From IMG/VR virus record IMGVR_UViG_2718217897_000004: a stretch of 42,229 bases of DNA; one strand, given 5' to 3'. Numbering within the stretch: the first letter of the stretch is position 1; each line of letters opens with the position of its first letter. This document shows positions 5,387 to 16,079 of the stretch, piece after piece. Under the pieces are notes generated by a model that saw only the letters and a program-made list of their open reading frames with translations, made no database searches and was not told where the DNA came from. The position numbers and the translations under genes are program-made. Source of the DNA: a virus (Duplodnaviria > Heunggongvirae > Uroviricota > Caudoviricetes).

Positions 5387-5444
5387 AAAAAGGGCGGCAG
5401 AGCAGTCACGGAGTAAAACTGATACCGCCAAACGTCACCAGAAA
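5387..5444 (-). ncRNA. dicF: DicF small regulatory RNA (53 nt) with 3' U-tract
   Basis: Minus strand reads TTTCTGGTGACGTTTGGCGGTATCAGTTTTACTCCGTGACTGCTCTGCCGCCC followed by TTTTT, which matches recalled DicF; sits immediately upstream of dicB as in Qin. Confidence 0.85.
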
Positions 5445-7009: not shown

Positions 7010-7044
7010 AGTTAGCTAATGCTAAATCTTATTGACTATGTTTT

Positions 7045-7076
7045 TGTTAACATCTATTTTGTTAGTCATGGCTAAC
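7045..7076. promoter_or_regulatory. Right operator/promoter region between dicA and dicC
   Basis: GTTAGTCATGGCTAAC (7061-7076) repeats the left-operator core; TGTTAACA palindrome at 7045-7052; divergent promoters expected here. Confidence 0.5.
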
Positions 7077-7323: not shown

Positions 7324-7858
7324 ACAGGTTTGTGAGGCTCTGGATGCCTGGGTGTGCCGACCAGGAATGACACAGGAGCAGGCGACGATATTAATCACGG
7401 AAGCATTCTGGGCTCTGAAAGAACGCCCGAACATCGATGTTCAACGCGTCACGTTTAATGATGGCGAGGTTGATCAACGGGCGCTGGGCGTTAACCGGGT
7501 GAAGATATTCGAACGCTGGAAAGCTATCGACACCAGGGATAAGCGGGAAAAATTCACGGCGCTGATTCCGGCAATTATGGAGGCTATCCGGATCAGCGAT
7601 TTCAGGTTGTATTGTGAAATTACTGACGGAAAAAGCATTACGTACATGATCGCCGGGTTAAACAAAGAATATGGCGATGTGGTGGAGTCCGGGCTGCTTT
7701 TTGCGGATCCATCTGTTGTGGAACGTGAGACTGACGAGCTTATAGAAAAAGCTATTGCTTTCAAGCATGCGTATCGTCAGCAATATCAATATTACTTTGC
7801 AGATAAACAAATGTCTGCCAGGGGTTCGTATGAGTATCGATGCACTACGATGGGCTAA
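7307..7858 (+). CDS. YdaT-like early protein (proposed CII-analogue family)
   Basis: 183-aa ORF directly after the Cro-like gene; segment REKFTALIPAIMEAI resembles the recalled YdaT segment; position equals lambda cII. Confidence 0.45.
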   Translation: MKITPEQVCEALDAWVCRPGMTQEQATILITEAFWALKERPNIDVQRVTFNDGEVDQRALGVNRVKIFERWKAIDTRDKREKFTALIPAIMEAIRISDFRLYCEITDGKSITYMIAGLNKEYGDVVESGLLFADPSVVERETDELIEKAIAFKHAYRQQYQYYFADKQMSARGSYEYRCTTMG

Positions 7859-8870
7859 AAAGGTGAAAACCGGCAGTTCATCCAGTAAGTCTGTATTGAC
7901 CTGGCTTGCTGATATGTGCGGTGCCGATTTGTGTGCATACCCGTCTGTATCTGCACTGGCAGAAGTAACGGAACTGAACAAAAAGACTGTGCAGGACAGC
8001 TTACGACACCTGATGGAGATTGGGTTAATTGTTGATACCGGTGAGAGAAAAGGCAGAACAAAGCAAATTGTGGTGTACCGACTTATCGGTGTAGATGAAA
8101 GTGTTGCCGAGCCTGAATACACCCAAAAACGGGAGTCTTTAAAGGTGGGTAAAATTGGTGCTGTTAATAAAAACAGTACCGAAAATGGTTATGTTTCAGC
8201 ACAAAACAGACCCAAAAACGGAACTCTTAGCTGCATGGAAAATAACCAAAGACACCCAAATTTTCCATCAAAGACACCCAAAAACGGATCACGGAACCCA
8301 AAGGAACCCAAAGATCTAAACCCCACACATAACGCACGCGAGAATGCCCCGACCAGTGAGCAGGAAGTTTTGTCGTTACAGGCAGCACCCCTTGTATTCC
8401 TGGATGGCCTGAGCGAACCCATCGGAAAATTTCCGATGACCGATAGCTGGTATCCGTCACGGGATTTTCGACGACGGGCTGCGTTGTGGGGGATGGCTTT
8501 GCCGGAGACAGAATTTACACCTGCTGAACTTGCCGTCTTCCGGGACTACTGGGCAGCGGAGGGGAAAGTGTTTACGCAGATTCAGTGGGAGCAGAAATTC
8601 GCCCGTCACGTAAATCACGTCAGGGCGCAGGTTAAACCAGTCAGCAAGGGGGTAAACCATGCAGCAGCACCAGGTGGCACCGCATCACGGGCAGTTCAGG
8701 AAATTCGGGCAGCACGTGAGCAGTGGGAACGTGAAAACGGATTTATCAGCGACGGAAACGGCCTGGAAGCTGTGGGAACTCATGGGGGAGGTTTATTCGA
8801 ACCGCTGGACCCAGAAGAACGGGGCCGCACCTTCGAAGCTCTGGATTGCACAGATTGGCGCGATGACTGA
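7830..8870 (+). CDS. Replication initiation protein (N-terminal winged HTH, C-terminal DnaT-like domain)
   Basis: Start ATG 7830 with AGGGG SD; N-terminus MSIDALRWAKKVKTGSSSSKSVLTWLADMCG... typical of prophage replication proteins; C-terminal DSWYPSRDFRRRAALWGMALPETEFTPAEL...DYWAAEGKVFTQIQWEQKF resembles DnaT-like domain. Confidence 0.7.
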   Translation: MSIDALRWAKKVKTGSSSSKSVLTWLADMCGADLCAYPSVSALAEVTELNKKTVQDSLRHLMEIGLIVDTGERKGRTKQIVVYRLIGVDESVAEPEYTQKRESLKVGKIGAVNKNSTENGYVSAQNRPKNGTLSCMENNQRHPNFPSKTPKNGSRNPKEPKDLNPTHNARENAPTSEQEVLSLQAAPLVFLDGLSEPIGKFPMTDSWYPSRDFRRRAALWGMALPETEFTPAELAVFRDYWAAEGKVFTQIQWEQKFARHVNHVRAQVKPVSKGVNHAAAPGGTASRAVQEIRAAREQWERENGFISDGNGLEAVGTHGGGLFEPLDPEERGRTFEALDCTDWRDD

Positions 8871-9324
8871 GCAGCAAATCCGGCAGGTCTGCCGCGAGTG
8901 CATGGACCGCTGCCGGGCGGGTGAAACATGGCCTCCGGACCTGGCTGAGTTTGTGGCGCTGATTTCGGAAAGCGGGGCCAATCCATTTGGTCTGACGGTG
9001 GATGCTGTGATGGAGGAGTACCGCCGCTGGCGCAATGAGTCCTGGCGATACGACGGAAGTGATAAGTACCCGTGGTCTCAGCCTGTGCTGTATCACATTT
9101 GCCTCGAGATGCGTTCAAAGGGGATTGAACGCCAGATGACCGAAGGGGAATTAAAACGGCTTGCAGAACGGCAGCTGACGAAATGGGCAAAGCATGTTAG
9201 TAACGGCCTGAGCGTTCCGCCAGTACGGCGACAACTGGCGGCACCAAAACGCCCGTTGGGACCAACGCCAATTGAGTTGCTGAAACAGGAATATGAACGC
9301 CGGAAAGCGGCTGGGTTTGTTTGA
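8659..9324 (+). CDS. Second replication-module protein (P-position); start may be ATG 8659 or ATG 8863
   Basis: 221-aa frame with strong AAGGGGG SD before ATG 8659 but 212-nt overlap with the upstream gene; alternative ATG 8863 gives ATGACTGA stop/start coupling. No Walker A motif seen. Confidence 0.5.
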   Translation: MQQHQVAPHHGQFRKFGQHVSSGNVKTDLSATETAWKLWELMGEVYSNRWTQKNGAAPSKLWIAQIGAMTEQQIRQVCRECMDRCRAGETWPPDLAEFVALISESGANPFGLTVDAVMEEYRRWRNESWRYDGSDKYPWSQPVLYHICLEMRSKGIERQMTEGELKRLAERQLTKWAKHVSNGLSVPPVRRQLAAPKRPLGPTPIELLKQEYERRKAAGFV

Positions 9325-9356
9325 GTTGAGAAGTAATTTTTACCGGGAGGAAATTT

Positions 9357-10127
9357 ATGGAGACTGTTTTTGACGCACTGAAAGCAATGGGAAAAGCCAC
9401 GTCGGTAGAACTGGCTACGCGACTTGATATCAGTCGTGAAGAAGTGCTGAACGAGCTGTGGGAACTCAAAAGAAATGGCGTCGTTGATAAAACTGGTCAC
9501 ACCTGGTTTCTGGCTGGCGAAGGTGAATCCCGGGTAACCGAAGAGCGGCCAGTAAAATCTGAAGCACAGGATATGCTGACCGGGGAGGTCGAACAAAAAG
9601 TTACCGCAGACATGATGATTGAGTTTATCGGTCAGGAGGGGGCTAAAACGTGTGAGGAACTGGCGGGTAAGTTCGGTGTCAGTACTCGCAAGGTTGCTTC
9701 CACGCTGGCGGTGGTAACCGCAACGGGGCGGCTGGCACGCGTTAATCAGAACGGTAAATTTCGTTACTGCATGCCGGGCGATAAGTTACCAGCAGAGCCG
9801 AAATCCGTGCCGGTAACGGAAAATGATGGTAAGGCCTTTCCTCAGCCAGCAGGTGTTGCGTTACCAGTACAGGAAGCGGCAACACAGGAAGATATTAAAA
9901 CAGAAACTGTGGCGGACATTGTGCAGTCGCTGCCATCGTTTACTGCAACGCGAGCTGATGATTTGATTTTGCCATCGCTGCATTTGGCAAACCGCGAACT
10001 GCGTCGGGCGAAAAATCATGTCCAGAAGTGGGAGCGTGTCTGCGCCGCGCTGCGGGAGCTGAACAGGCACCGGGATATTGTCCGACAGATTGTCGATTCT
10101 TCCCGCCACGTTGCACCGGAAAAGTGA
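9357..10127 (+). CDS. Hypothetical phage protein with N-terminal winged-helix-like region (recalled as a DUF1627-type prophage protein)
   Basis: 256-aa ORF with GGGAGG SD; N-terminal ...ELATRLDISREEVLNELWELKRNGVV... HTH-like. Confidence 0.6.
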   Translation: METVFDALKAMGKATSVELATRLDISREEVLNELWELKRNGVVDKTGHTWFLAGEGESRVTEERPVKSEAQDMLTGEVEQKVTADMMIEFIGQEGAKTCEELAGKFGVSTRKVASTLAVVTATGRLARVNQNGKFRYCMPGDKLPAEPKSVPVTENDGKAFPQPAGVALPVQEAATQEDIKTETVADIVQSLPSFTATRADDLILPSLHLANRELRRAKNHVQKWERVCAALRELNRHRDIVRQIVDSSRHVAPEK

Positions 10128-10142
10128 TTGTCGGAGGTGATT

Positions 10143-10634
10143 ATGGCAAGAGTATTTACACAGGAAGAACGGGAAGAAGTGAAGGCGCGCATTGTGGAAC
10201 TGGTACGCAGAGATGGGCGGAAAACGCGTAAACAACTGGAAAATGAAACCGGGGCGACAAGACATCTGATAGAAGTTCTGACGAAAGAGCTGGTAGCCAG
10301 TGGTGTTGTATATGGCTCAGGGTATGGAATATTCCCTTCAGCGCAGGCACGTAAGGACTGGATAAAAGCCATCGAAAAGATGTCGAAAGCAAAGTTAAAG
10401 AAACTGGCTGTGGTTGATCCTGACCTTATCTGGTCATTACCAGACGGAGAAATACGCCGCTACGACAGGCGTCAAAACATAATCTGTAGCGAGTGCCGGA
10501 AGAGCGAAGTTATGCAGCGCGTGCTGGCGTTTTATCAAGGAGGTGGTGCTGTGAGTGAAATTAGCTATCAGGCTTCAATTGCCGCTGGCATTTGCATCAA
10601 AGGAGAGGAGCATGGAAATAAAACCAGAAGATGA
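10143..10634 (+). CDS. Hypothetical phage early protein
   Basis: 163-aa frame from ATG 10143 with GGAGG SD; N-terminal charged helix-rich region. Confidence 0.55.
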   Translation: MARVFTQEEREEVKARIVELVRRDGRKTRKQLENETGATRHLIEVLTKELVASGVVYGSGYGIFPSAQARKDWIKAIEKMSKAKLKKLAVVDPDLIWSLPDGEIRRYDRRQNIICSECRKSEVMQRVLAFYQGGGAVSEISYQASIAAGICIKGEEHGNKTRR

Positions 10635-10968
10635 GTTAAGTAATATTGTTTTATTTCCGGTAAAAGAGGATGACCCACGTAATCAGGTTAATTTTCTTTA
10701 TGAGCCATCGGAAAGACCATATTGTCATCACGCCTCTGTCCGGGTTGACGAAAAAGAGCGTCAGGTCCGCTGTAAAATCTGCGGTGCAGTTGTGGAGCCA
10801 TTTGACTGGATGCTCTCTGTGGCGAAAAGAGAAACCAGACTGGCAGATGATGTAAAACTATTGCGCCAGGAGGAACAGGAAAGGCGAAAAAATATAGAAA
10901 AGCTAATTCAGATTGAGCGTAATGCGAAAGCACGGATACGCAGGGTGACAAAATCCAGAACTGAATAA
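10612..10968 (+). CDS. Hypothetical protein with CHH...CxxC zinc-binding motif and basic coiled C-terminus
   Basis: 119-aa frame from ATG 10612 with GGAGAGGAG SD; PYCHHASV...CKICGAV motif. Confidence 0.5.
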   Translation: MEIKPEDELSNIVLFPVKEDDPRNQVNFLYEPSERPYCHHASVRVDEKERQVRCKICGAVVEPFDWMLSVAKRETRLADDVKLLRQEEQERRKNIEKLIQIERNAKARIRRVTKSRTE

Positions 10969-11061
10969 TTAAATTTAGCACTGTTAAAAATTTAATCCTT
11001 AACCGGAGGGATTTCTGCACCCTCAGAACAGCAGGAGGCCACCCGAAAGGGTGGTAGTGAA

Positions 11062-11244
11062 ATGCGAAAGTTCAAAATAATTATTGAAACGGGAATAGCT
11101 GGTGGAGATTTTGAGGATGTATTCGAAGTGGACGATGACGCAACACCTGATGAAATTCATGACGAAGCAAAAGAAATTTTCTTTAACTACTGCAATTACT
11201 CATATCACGAAATAAAAGACGAAGAGGAAGAACAAAATGGCTGA
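11062..11244 (+). CDS. Small acidic hypothetical protein
   Basis: 60-aa ORF; a GNRA-loop hairpin lies between its SD-like AGGAGG and the ATG. Confidence 0.4.
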   Translation: MRKFKIIIETGIAGGDFEDVFEVDDDATPDEIHDEAKEIFFNYCNYSYHEIKDEEEEQNG

Positions 11245-11413
11245 TTTTGGTTCAACTAAATACAACGTCAGTTTTGAAGAATGGCATGAACTGTTAATGG
11301 ACTATGCAGAGTTACGTGGTGGAAGTGCTGCTGATGCTGAAGCCTGGCATGATGACTACGAAGCAGGAAAAACTCCGGTCGAAGCATATTGTGATGAGTG
11401 GGGCGATGAATGA
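11237..11413 (+). CDS. Small acidic hypothetical protein (58 aa, below the ORF-track cutoff)
   Basis: ATG 11237 overlaps upstream stop (ATGGCTGA); stop overlaps next start (GATGAATGAGC); translationally coupled chain. Confidence 0.35.
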   Translation: MADFGSTKYNVSFEEWHELLMDYAELRGGSAADAEAWHDDYEAGKTPVEAYCDEWGDE

Positions 11414-11925
11414 GCGAGATTAATTATCAGGAAGGGCATGAAACGGCAGGGCAGGCAAAACCAGTTGCATGGCGATATCGCTACGTGAAAAAAGGCGTTA
11501 CGGACTCTCAGGGGGAGCCGTGGGTTGGTGACTGGAAATATGTACCGACAAAAGAGGATTGCAACGACAGGCCGAACTATGAAATTCAGGCGTTATTCAC
11601 GGCCCAGCCTGTGCCACTGACACCAGAAGGATTGATTAAAGCAGTGCGTTTCTATGAACAGGTAAAGCGTGAGAATCCACCAGTAGAAACAGGAGCATGG
11701 AAAGATGCTGTTGATTGGGTACTCAAAGAGGCCTGCTGTGCTGTCATTCTGGGTAAAGCCGACAATCCACTAGCATCCAGTAATCAGGTTGGCGAATTAA
11801 CAATGTGGGTTAAACGACTGGTCAGTCAACTGAAAAAAGCTAATCCAGACTGCAAATTACCGGAGAAGGCGATGGACTACCTGAAGCGGAACGAACTGAT
11901 AAGCGCGGAGGATGTTTTGCGATGA
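11410..11925 (+). CDS. Hypothetical phage protein
   Basis: 171-aa ORF coupled to the upstream small gene. Confidence 0.55.
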   Translation: MSEINYQEGHETAGQAKPVAWRYRYVKKGVTDSQGEPWVGDWKYVPTKEDCNDRPNYEIQALFTAQPVPLTPEGLIKAVRFYEQVKRENPPVETGAWKDAVDWVLKEACCAVILGKADNPLASSNQVGELTMWVKRLVSQLKKANPDCKLPEKAMDYLKRNELISAEDVLR

Positions 11926-12005
11926 CCTGGCCTGAAGCATTCACAACGGTAGGAATTGCAATGGCGGTGGCGCTGGTGGTGTATTCGATTTGCCGCTGGG
12001 GGTAA
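11922..12005 (+). CDS. Possible 27-aa hydrophobic peptide (MTWPEAFTTVGIAMAVALVVYSICRWG)
   Basis: ATG overlaps the upstream stop (ATGA); single predicted TM helix; too short for confident calling. Confidence 0.25.
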   Translation: MTWPEAFTTVGIAMAVALVVYSICRWG

Positions 12006-12467
12006 GGTATTAAAAAACGCCCCGTATACAGACGTTGATCGCCTGAGATGTGGGGATAGGGAGTTAGTTAAATAGTTATACAACAATACCTGATTTTATA
12101 TTGAAGCAAGAAATAGGTTGCTACATATTGAATCATGCGCGTGTACGTCAAATATGGGAGGTCATCGTGCTGGTTCTGAAATGTGCGCTGGCTGTTGCGG
12201 CAGTAATGGCAATTTATTGTCTTGTTATCGTTCTTATGAATCACCTCTCTGATTGATTTCATATTGGCGAGGTGATGGGAGTTAAGTAGAATGGCTGCGG
12301 GTGCTTGAGGCTATCTGCCTCGGGCATGAACACCAACGGCAGATAGAGAAAAGCCCCAGTTAACATTACGCGTCCTGCAAGACGTTTAACATTAATCTGA
12401 GGCCCAATCTATGCTTCACAAACGTAGGTTAGCCTCTTACGTGCCGAAAGGCAAGGAGAAGCAGGCT

Positions 12468-12623
12468 ATGAAGCAGCAAAAGGCGATGTTAATCGCCCTG
12501 ATCGTCATCTGTTTAACCGTCATAGTGACGGCACTGGTAACGAGGAAAGACCTCTGCGAGGTACGAATCCGAACCGGCCAGACGGAGGTCGCTGTCTTCA
12601 CAGCTTACGAACCTGAGGAGTAA
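12468..12623 (+). CDS. hok: Hok/Gef-family type I toxin (51 aa)
   Basis: MKQQKAMLIALIVICLTVIVTALVTRKDLCEVRIRTGQTEVAVFTAYEPEE carries the Hok signature LTRK-LCE-R-R-G--EVA-F-AYE; in-frame upstream extension from 12411 resembles a mok-like leader; structured leader and terminator flank it. Confidence 0.8.
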   Translation: MKQQKAMLIALIVICLTVIVTALVTRKDLCEVRIRTGQTEVAVFTAYEPEE

Positions 12624-12691
12624 GAGACCTGGCGGGGGAGAAATCCCTCGCCACCTCTGATGTGTCAGGCATCCTCAACGCACCCGCACTT

Positions 12692-12723
12692 AACCCGCTT
12701 CGGCGGGTTTTTGTTTTTATTTT
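12692..12723 (+). terminator. Rho-independent terminator of the hok transcript
   Basis: CCCGC-TTCG-GCGGG hairpin followed by a T-run. Confidence 0.55.
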
Positions 12724-15769: not shown

Positions 15770-15845
15770 GGCCCTTTAGCTCAGTGGTAAGAGCGAGCGA
15801 CTCATAATCGCCAGGTCGCTGGTTCAAATCCAGCAAGGGCCACCA
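15770..15845 (+). tRNA. tRNA with CAU anticodon, Ile2(LAU)-like (ileX/ileZ-like)
   Basis: 76 nt, acceptor GGCCCTT/AAGGGCC, anticodon loop CTCATAA; resembles recalled ileX. Confidence 0.8.
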
Positions 15846-15846
15846 G

Positions 15847-15923
15847 CCGCCACTAGCTCATCAGGAAAGAGCGTCAACCCTTTAAGTTGAGTGTGCGAGG
15901 TTCGAGTCCCCGGTGGCGATCCA
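15847..15923 (+). tRNA. tRNA-like gene of uncertain isotype (possibly degenerate)
   Basis: Cloverleaf can be drawn but with C1-A72 mismatch, one T-stem mismatch and anticodon loop CCTTTAA (C at position 33; anticodon would be UUU). Confidence 0.4.
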
Positions 15924-15925
15924 GT

Positions 15926-16001
<76 letters not shown>

Positions 16002-16004
16002 TAT

Positions 16005-16079
<75 letters not shown>

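Follow-up and report, generated by a model that had tools for sequence, protein, structure and literature searches.

In phage lambda, the rightward early operon carries the ren/nin region in its P-to-Q interval, after the helicase-loader gene and 5' of the resolvase and Q genes. Its genes lie on one strand, with tight or overlapping spacing, are dispensable and vary between phages. The first product of interest, Ren, has been described as "likely involved in DNA replication", and the Rex proteins interact with both O and Ren (bioRxiv 10.1101/2021.04.19.439022). In the Rac prophage (K-12; phage Rac MN652886, KU052037), the corresponding order is helicase loader, ydaW, lygF (encoding a DUF977 protein), HP1/HP2 and hok, next to a replication module consisting of YdaU and the DnaC-like YdaV. 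K-12 ydaW blocked the retron-Sen2 RcaT toxin in one overexpression screen reported in a preprint (bioRxiv 10.1101/2020.06.22.160242); the allele in this screen was the truncated K-12 form, which breaks off after residue ~154. A third related arrangement is found in Stx phage ArgO145, but in the other, leftward early operon (ea/exo-xis side).

The window analyzed here is a 42,229-nucleotide stretch of a Caudoviricetes virus (IMG/VR record IMGVR_UViG_2718217897_000004), which context and sequence identity assign to the prophages with dicA/dicC/ydaT. At positions 9357–11925 it contains a block of six plus-strand ORFs of 58–256 residues, which an earlier note on this DNA had listed and which match the RefSeq gene calls in a 99.9% identical locus of E. 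coli strain 2D. As that note had also stated, the block is situated between replication genes and a hok locus. On the left (7830–9324, plus strand), Pfam, PHROG and the RefSeq locus identify genes for a DnaT-like origin-binding protein, an analogue of O, and a P-like helicase loader; iterons are present at 8116–8312. On the right (12299–12623, plus strand) lies a hokD/sok type I toxin-antitoxin locus, with hokD named in the RefSeq annotation of the identical locus and the sok RNA recognized by Rfam (RF01794, 113 bits). At a permissive threshold, an Rfam search of positions 10900–12300 returned sok and no other RNA family, and a repeat search found neither iterons nor repeats within the block. 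Pas sRNAs, described in the vicinity of DUF1627 genes, are located by the holin/lysis genes, outside the block, and were rejected as block components.

The block thus resembles the lambda nin region in position, strand, spacing and variability, but it differs from it in having a YdaW gene between the P-like and Ren-like genes and a hok/sok locus inside the interval. In a tblastn comparison of all six proteins with the lambda early-left and nin regions, Ren was the only lambda relative recovered; ORF1 and ORF3–6 had no detectable counterpart there. The gene order of Rac is that of the window, with HP1/HP2 equivalent to ORF4/ORF5 and with YdaW of Rac 442/2 63% identical to ORF1; however, Rac uses the YdaU/YdaV module rather than the DnaT-like/P-like one, and it lacks ORF3 and a full-length ORF6. 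In ArgO145, gp13–gp18 encode an Ea22-like protein, ORF3 (98% identical), ORF4 (97%), ORF5 (93%), a second Ea22-like protein and a 27-residue ORF (100%); an additional gene of 213 nt separates ORF3 from ORF4 there, and neither ORF1 nor ORF2 is alongside. The segment is best read as the nin-type accessory region of a Qin/Rac-type lambdoid prophage of E. coli.

The six ORFs are real genes and not chance reading frames, because the exact protein of each is found on anywhere from tens to over 1000 contigs in public data and dN/dS against homologues ranges from 0.03 to 0.52; all six are under purifying selection. Although NCBIfam had no family for any of the six proteins, the earlier verdict that none is assignable was too strong: the block holds members of DUF1627/YdaW, of DUF977 with kinship to Ren and of DUF7167, and four PHROG families are represented. 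They are DUF and PHROG families of variable distribution, not conserved core genes of known function. The block is an ordinary accessory patchwork that is already catalogued and annotated in RefSeq E. coli genomes, and it changes the interpretation of the genome little.

Its variability, which the earlier note had surmised for an early region of uncharacterized genes, was borne out in E. coli genomes and related prophages alike. Part of positions 9000–12700 is found in 4863 of 5426 complete E. coli genomes, but 80% or more of this interval in only 169. Counting genomes with a match covering at least 80% of the query, ORF1 is found in 1572, ORF2 in 2261, ORF3 in 1678, ORF4 plus ORF5 in 1748, ORF6 in 294 and the whole block in 169 of the 5426. 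Within the same loci, ORF1 and ORF2 are 60–89% identical to their relatives, as opposed to 93–99% for ORF3–5. At the ORF2/ORF3 junction, related prophages carry DUF4014, DUF4406, Ea22-like or Paa/AdfO genes, and the string ORF3-ORF4-ORF5-Ea22-like recurs in the leftward early region of ArgO145. Gene order in viral loci is colinear, with helicase loaders of the P type in 13 and of the DnaC type in 13. The block is thus a mosaic of separately distributed and differently diverged genes, not one system. We consider it likely that it represents the promoter-proximal part of a nin-type patchwork in the helicase loader-Q interval of a Qin/Rac-type prophage, assembled from at least three independently inherited pieces with the roles proposed below.

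ORF1 (9357–10127, plus strand; 256 residues) belongs to the YdaW family by Pfam, PHROG and BLASTP. It matches all 155 positions of PF07789 (DUF1627) with residues 91–245 (321.6 bits; cut-off 28.1) and phrog_630 with an E-value of 2.8e-136. K-12 Rac YdaW is 58% identical over residues 1–154 (BLASTP 2e-61), and ydaW occupies the same place after the helicase-loader gene; by its sequence, ORF1 is the full-length orthologue of the K-12 product. Two winged-helix domains (residues ~1–55 and 86–140) are followed by a linker rich in P, E and A and by a C-terminal helical region that is conserved, with sub-threshold matches to several HTH families at residues 1–50 and 86–135. In related prophages, ORF1 is 63–89% identical (dN/dS 0.30–0.52).

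ORF2 (10143–10634, plus strand; 163 residues, or 168 from an alternative TTG start at 10128) is not the gene next to P but the one after that, with ORF1 in between. Pfam, PHROG and hhalign place it as a DUF977/Ren-like winged-helix protein: it matches positions 1–132 of the 134 in PF06163 (113.7 bits; cut-off 22.1), and it shares phrog_142, "Ren-like exclusion protein", with lambda Ren (4.6e-40 and 1.6e-41, respectively). Alignment of the ORF2 family with Ren by hhalign gave a probability of 90% (E-value 1.6e-6; 68 columns), while pairwise similarity in BLASTP is confined to a 20-residue C-terminal motif. Since Ren itself gave no DUF977 match in Pfam, the homology of ORF2 to Ren is remote. Compared to Ren, it carries an insertion of ~30 residues and, in this window, a foreign tail. 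Residues ~133–163 match the C-terminus of the gene found ahead of ORF3 in other prophages (a 47-residue or an Ea22-like one), identifying the present ORF2 as a deletion chimera whose tail stems from a lost neighboring gene. It is a clean case of module exchange at junctions consisting of a ribosome-binding site and an overlap. We suggest that such short conserved junctions, with their overlapping stop and start codons, serve as recombination linkers, and that one recombination event at a junction deleted a variable cassette and fused ORF2 to its tail.

Winged-helix-like N-termini had been noted for two of the ORFs, and Pfam HTH/DUF977 matches together with profile alignment support them for ORF1 and ORF2. 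Direct BLASTP comparison of the two proteins revealed no similarity; they are therefore not detectable paralogues. Sequence searches of PDB chains with ORF1, ORF2, ORF3 and ORF6, and profile searches of the PDB with the ORF1 and ORF2 families, gave nothing significant. The Z-alpha domain was among the best PDB sequence matches of both ORF1 and ORF2, at E-values of 0.05–0.7; an assignment would have called for significant similarity together with the Asn and Tyr conserved in helix 3 and the wing Trp, and it was rejected on these E-values and because the key Asn aligned with Leu31 (HMMER).

ORF3 (10612–10968, plus strand; 118 residues) combines a CxH...CxxC zinc ribbon with a long basic helix, as seen from PHROG, alignment and AlphaFold2. 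The zinc-binding motif ascribed earlier to one of the ORFs is this one: C38, H40, C54 and C57 are invariant among 35 homologues. The single, long helix (LRxEExxRRxNIEKLIQIERNAKARIRR) is nearly invariant, and dN/dS is as low as 0.03–0.13. In the AlphaFold2 model (pLDDT 73.5), strands span residues 43–54 and the helix residues 63–117. Foldseek found no PDB match to this model below an E-value of 0.3; the best hit, the TFIIB N-terminal domain (E-value 0.33), recognized only the 27-residue zinc ribbon. The TFIIB-type zinc ribbon family (PF08271, Zn_Ribbon_TF) scored 21.5 bits, below its cut-off of 29. Given this score and the four invariant ligands, we conclude that ORF3 carries a zinc ribbon without being a member of that family; it does belong to phrog_1621 (1.5e-55), a PHROG family of unknown function. 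In Serratia, Yersinia and Klebsiella, its relatives are flanked by RusA/NinG/NinH/YbcO genes on one side and YlcG plus Q on the other, and ORF4–6 are missing.

Based on these results, we suggest that ORF1 and ORF2 form an extended "ren locus", a tandem winged-helix YdaW protein plus a Ren homologue, which comes after the helicase loader in phages with either type of loader. The two proteins would most likely bind DNA or the replication complex and protect the developing phage against Rex-type or retron-type abortive or exclusion systems. ORF3 would be a nin-type gene whose product is probably a nucleic-acid binder. These two links, of DUF977 to Ren and of ORF1 to YdaW, provide testable leads for counter-exclusion.

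The strongest competitor, which we regard as a serious though less probable option, is that ORF1–ORF3 are the phage's own replication, recombination or regulation accessories, comparable to lambda Ren, NinB and NinG, and tune origin firing, recombination-dependent replication or the timing of late genes. Three winged-helix domains and a zinc ribbon with a basic helix suit such tasks, as do the placement of ORF1 and ORF2 right behind the helicase-loader gene, be the module P-type or DnaC-type, that of ORF3 relatives between Holliday-junction resolvase genes and Q, and the replication role ascribed to Ren. However, ORF1 evolves fast, with dN/dS reaching 0.52, the block contains no DNA target or iteron, and genes of the ORF1/ORF2 type are dispensable, as YdaW is truncated in K-12 Rac and the DUF977 gene is absent from PPompW. 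For ORF1–3, a DNA-binding role associated with replication or recombination nevertheless accounts for the data at least as well as anti-defence does.

Somewhat less probable still, and in our view doubtful, is the idea that the block in its entirety serves anti-defence or host takeover, as an island in which most or all six products would neutralize immunity or redirect host machinery early in lytic growth. Some members may plausibly serve in anti-defence, as hinted at indirectly by the membership of ORF2 in the Ren PHROG, by the block of a retron toxin by K-12 ydaW and by the small size and high acidity of ORF4 and ORF5, reminiscent of many phage inhibitor proteins. The differing gene content of the interval between prophages and the occurrence of homologous genes in the exo-xis/ea accessory region of Stx phages would also fit an island. 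Yet roughly one in two E. coli genomes carries ORF1/ORF2, with the pair invariably following straight on from the helicase loader; this looks more like a function of the phage lineage than arms-race cargo. Purifying selection on ORF3 is very strong, and in other genera its nin location next to resolvase and Q genes is fixed. Among the defence-protein models of PADLOC-DB, ORF1 found weak, HTH-level matches only and ORF3–6 found none.

ORF4 (11062–11244, plus strand; 60 residues) is a DUF7167 protein (PF23768, 53.6 bits; cut-off 24.4) that also matches phrog_1997. Its family comprises 97 representative clusters, nearly all stand-alone proteins of 50–70 residues. ORF5 (11237–11413, plus strand; 58 residues), which overlaps ORF4 by 8 nt, has no Pfam match; it aligns with positions 76–137 of the 143-position profile of phrog_519, of unknown function (5.1e-23), and its family is narrow (Escherichia, Shigella, Salmonella, Enterobacter). 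Both proteins are very acidic (pI 4.06 and net charge -14 for ORF4; pI 4.05 and -13 for ORF5), with dN/dS of 0.04–0.08 and 0.04–0.22, respectively. ORF5 accompanies ORF4 in 63 of 66 viral loci with ORF4, and linkage between the two is tight. When relatives of either protein were screened for informative domain fusions, nearly all proved to be small and stand-alone, and no functional study of ORF3–6 came up in the literature under DUF name, PHROG id or RefSeq protein accession.

We suggest that ORF4-ORF5, extending to ORF6 and the 27-residue ORF, constitute a cassette with this coupled tiny acidic pair as its core, and that the likeliest role of ORF4 and ORF5 is stoichiometric binding or inhibition of a protein from the host or from a rival phage. 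Acidity alone does not establish inhibitor function. It seems rather unlikely that ORF4-ORF5 are an undescribed inhibitor pair directed against a host defence or nuclease, or that ORF1-ORF2 are a counter-abortive-infection family against retron- or Rex-type systems. If true, either reading would give a function to genes in a third to half of E. coli genomes. Because genes of the block occur in 30–50% of complete E. coli genomes, assigning any function would widely improve annotation, and ORF4-ORF5, as a conserved mobile pair, is a candidate for anti-defence screens.

The six genes had been portrayed as translationally coupled throughout, with overlapping stops and starts. Overlaps do exist at three of the five junctions, ORF2/ORF3 (23 nt), ORF4/ORF5 (8 nt) and ORF5/ORF6 (ATGA), but ORF1/ORF2 are separated by a 15-nt gap and ORF3/ORF4 by a 93-nt gap with a hairpin, so that uniform coupling fails. 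The latter spacer (10969–11061, plus strand), delineated by sequence, fold and conservation, contains AGGAGG at 11033–11038 and a GC hairpin at 11039–11054 (CCACCC GAAA GGGTGG), followed by 7 nt and the ATG of ORF4, and it is kept 5' of ORF4 even behind differing upstream genes. Among 121 viral-contig copies, a stem pair is G-C in 100, wobble in 18, mismatched in 2 and a compensatory A-T in 1, the last being the version in the window. Between a promoter-like site at 7032–7060 and a terminator at 12692–12709, we detected no consensus promoter or plus-strand terminator, only two weak internal hairpins. To judge from these missing consensus signals, the block is probably transcribed with the replication genes from a DicA-repressed rightward early promoter.

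The shared strand, tight spacing, three overlapping junctions and lack of internal consensus promoters and terminators could also be taken as signs of one multi-protein system, encoded by a single operon and acting as a unit. We deem this very improbable: the distribution data largely refute it, as genome distributions and divergence levels are unlinked, foreign genes are inserted between members in relatives, ORF3 occurs without the other members in other genera, and consistent linkage is seen only for ORF4 and ORF5. Equally far-fetched is a block of decaying, non-functional prophage DNA, which the chimeric ORF2, the frequent defects of Qin/Rac-type prophages and an internal stop in the DUF977 gene of one relative might suggest, but which conflicts with six intact ORFs, with their dN/dS values and with close homologues in induced or isolated phages (vB_Eco series, ArgO145).

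Within the patchwork that we favor, ORF6 (11410–11925, plus strand; 171 residues) is itself modular. According to PHROG, it consists of three exchangeable segments (residues ~16–62, 63–113 and 114–171); phrog_660, 26213, 924, 8171 and 250, families of unknown function, each match different segments. Some segments are common to proteins with Ea22 (PF13935) or DUF551 domains, and the Ead/Ea22-like proteins, which share the middle and C-terminal segments, show the same segment shuffling. ORF6 is covered to at least 80% in only 294 of 2076 matching genomes. Membership in the Ead/Ea22-like family was rejected, since ORF6 matched no Pfam family, PF13935 included, and has only downstream segments in common with Ea22-domain proteins. 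An AlphaFold2 model, built on a shallow alignment of 16 sequences (pLDDT 52.6), was too poor for a fold search.

A seventh, previously unlisted ORF of 27 codons (11922–12005, plus strand), recognized by sequence and conservation, encodes a hydrophobic peptide (MTWPEAFTTVGIAMAVALVVYSICRWG; GRAVY 1.09), and its start overlaps the ORF6 stop (ATGA). The exact peptide is found on 79 contigs. In six loci it is 92–100% conserved behind differing upstream genes, two of these loci showing synonymous changes only.

The window is a Qin/Rac-type lambdoid prophage with the gene order dicA, dicC, ydaT-like, DnaT-like origin protein, P-like helicase loader, six ORFs, hokD/sok, DUF968, RusA and Q; the earlier note was therefore right to place the block of six after the replication genes and before the hok locus. 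ORF1 (256 aa; 9357-10127), ORF2 (163 aa; 10143-10634), ORF3 (118 aa; 10612-10968), ORF4 (60 aa; 11062-11244), ORF5 (58 aa; 11237-11413) and ORF6 (171 aa; 11410-11925), all on the plus strand, are real genes. Each exact protein was found on 10 to >1000 public contigs, and RefSeq lists all six as genes in a 99.9% identical stretch of Escherichia coli strain 2D. Comparison with homologues from related loci gave dN/dS values of 0.30-0.52 for ORF1, 0.17-0.34 for ORF2, 0.03-0.13 for ORF3, 0.04-0.08 for ORF4, 0.04-0.22 for ORF5 and ~0.2 for ORF6.

Translational coupling, initially proposed for the entire block, holds at three of the five internal junctions (ORF2/ORF3, 23-nt overlap; ORF4/ORF5, 8 nt; ORF5/ORF6, ATGA) and fails at ORF1/ORF2 and ORF3/ORF4, where gaps of 15 and 93 nt intervene. 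Simple scans of the block revealed no consensus promoter and no convincing plus-strand terminator; such signals occur nearest at 7032-7060, where a promoter-like site precedes dicC, and at 12692-12709, where a terminator follows hok. It is reasonable to infer that the block is co-transcribed with the replication genes. In the region preceding ORF4 (11033-11061), an AGGAGG sits 24 nt before the ATG, and a GC hairpin (CCACCC GAAA GGGTGG, 11039-11054) lies between the two, the folding of which would restore normal ribosome-binding-site spacing. This element is kept even where the upstream gene differs. At its variable stem pair, 100 of 121 viral-contig copies have G-C, 18 a wobble, two a mismatch and one a compensatory A-T, the last also being the window's own pair. 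A 21-nt inverted repeat (81% complementary; 11006-11026 and 12629-12649, 1.6 kb apart) pairs the pre-ORF4 spacer with the 3' end of the hok transcript region, and may be due to chance.

The block is a mosaic, not one system. Among 5426 genomes, matches covering at least 80% of the query were found in 1572 for ORF1, 2261 for ORF2, 1678 for ORF3, 1748 for ORF4 plus ORF5 and 294 for ORF6, and in 169 for the whole interval 9000-12700. Identity to the window, compared within one set of related loci, is 60-89% for ORF1 and ORF2 but 93-99% for ORF3-5; the pieces therefore have different histories. Between ORF2 and ORF3, related prophages that share the replication module have additional DUF4014, DUF4406, Ea22-like and small hypothetical genes, while PPompW has Paa/AdfO after ORF1 instead. 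In Stx phage ArgO145, the string Ea22-like, ORF3, ORF4, ORF5, Ea22-like and a 27-aa ORF lies in the leftward early region.

ORF2 ends in 31 residues that fall outside DUF977 and match the C-terminus of the 47-aa or Ea22-like gene found ahead of ORF3 in other prophages, with the DNA join at a short common TTTCAGGAGGTG-type ribosome-binding-site sequence. The compact arrangement in the window is therefore a deletion derivative, with a 23-nt ORF2/ORF3 overlap that came from the lost gene. A peptide tail, ...IKGEEHGNKTR(G/R), recurs at the C-termini of unrelated genes (window 10530-10634; related loci L005, 3602-3745, and L006, 3380-3488), as do related ...GIKGE ends seen on ORF6-like proteins. 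The DNA under these shared tails holds the next gene's ribosome-binding site and start; such junctions apparently act as linkers at which modules recombine.

The view that none of the six is assignable was too strong: ORF1 is a DUF1627 protein (321.6 bits; cut-off 28.1), ORF2 is DUF977/Ren-like and ORF4 is DUF7167. The PHROG families of ORF1 and ORF3-6 include none with known function, and nothing further on the block proteins came from NCBIfam, PADLOC or searches of PDB sequences. In ORF3, a CxH...CxxC zinc ribbon is invariant and a basic C-terminal helix nearly so; AlphaFold2 (pLDDT 73.5) models a small β-hairpin ribbon and a single 55-residue helix, and Foldseek against the PDB found no whole-protein relative. 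Its relatives in Serratia, Yersinia and Klebsiella prophages (45-73% identity) lie between RusA/NinG/NinH/YbcO and YlcG+Q without ORF4-6, which makes ORF3 an independent nin-type gene. ORF4 and ORF5, each of ~60 residues, are extremely acidic (pI ~4.05; net charges -14 and -13), and ORF5 matches positions 76-137 of the 143 in phrog_519. As ORF5 accompanies ORF4 in 63 of the 66 viral contigs encoding the latter, always colinearly, the pair is the sole consistently linked unit in the block; the helicase loader upstream is P-type in 13 of these contigs and DnaC-type in 13. Several PHROGs match ORF6, each over its own segment; the protein's three segments also occur in other arrangements, some of them fused to Ea22 or DUF551 domains.

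ORF1 consists of two winged-helix regions followed by a conserved C-terminal region; it is the full-length counterpart (58% identity) of YdaW from the K-12 Rac prophage, which ends after about residue 154. DUF977, too, has been recognized as a winged helix (PMC2686095). ORF2 falls into phrog_142, "Ren-like exclusion protein" (4.6e-40), which λ Ren itself matches at 1.6e-41, and a profile of ORF2 relatives aligned with Ren (probability 90%, E 1.6e-6) across the helix-turn-helix and a C-terminal ECRxSxxMxRVLAxY motif. Thus, on these profile comparisons, ORF2 is a remote Ren homologue with a ~30-residue insertion. Both ORF1 and ORF2 keep their position after the helicase loader under either replication type. 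λ ren mutants are excluded by Rex. According to Thomason et al. (10.1101/2021.04.19.439022), ren is "likely involved in DNA replication", and Rex proteins interact with O and Ren in two-hybrid assays. In an overexpression screen, the prophage genes that blocked the retron-Sen2 RcaT toxin included K-12 ydaW (10.1101/2020.06.22.160242). We therefore infer that ORF1 and ORF2 are DNA- or replisome-associated winged-helix proteins, possibly with a counter-exclusion role, and rate ORF3 as a putative nucleic-acid-binding nin gene and ORF4-ORF5 as candidate stoichiometric inhibitors. Host-takeover or anti-defense functions, as suggested in the earlier note, are a reasonable but generic interpretation of a largely correct observation; the rival reading of ORF1-3 as replication or recombination accessories of the phage itself agrees at least as well with the positional conservation. 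As a mosaic accessory region of a very common prophage type, the block is ordinary and has been annotated before, and its every feature falls within known kinds; what value remains is in the links to Ren and YdaW and in the ORF4-ORF5 pair, a candidate for screening.

Beyond ORF6, and overlapping its stop codon by ATGA, lies a 27-codon hydrophobic ORF (MTWPEAFTTVGIAMAVALVVYSICRWG; 11922-12005, +) that RefSeq does not annotate in the identical locus. Across six related loci, among them Stx phage ArgO145, it shows 92-100% conservation behind genes that differ, and it probably encodes a small membrane protein and forms the seventh gene of the string. An insertion of ~290 bp (12006-12298), present in some relatives and absent from others, separates it from hok/sok. 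This insertion, without a match in Rfam, contains a very hydrophobic 29-codon ORF (MLVLKCALAVAAVMAIYCLVIVLMNHLSD; 12167-12256, +) with a GTG start and a GGGAGG ribosome-binding site, the exact peptide of which was not found in the protein collection, and, just upstream, a terminator-like hairpin on the opposite strand (12036-12016, -). It could represent a second type I toxin-like module.

Elsewhere in the window, CAAAGACACCCAAAAACGG-type direct repeats (three to six copies; 8116-8312) within the DnaT-like replication gene are probably origin iterons. DicF sRNA is encoded at 5392-5443 (-; 76.7 bits), a four-tRNA cluster lies downstream of Q (15770-16076, +), and an additional tRNA close to the left end (892-978, +) may mark the attachment site.
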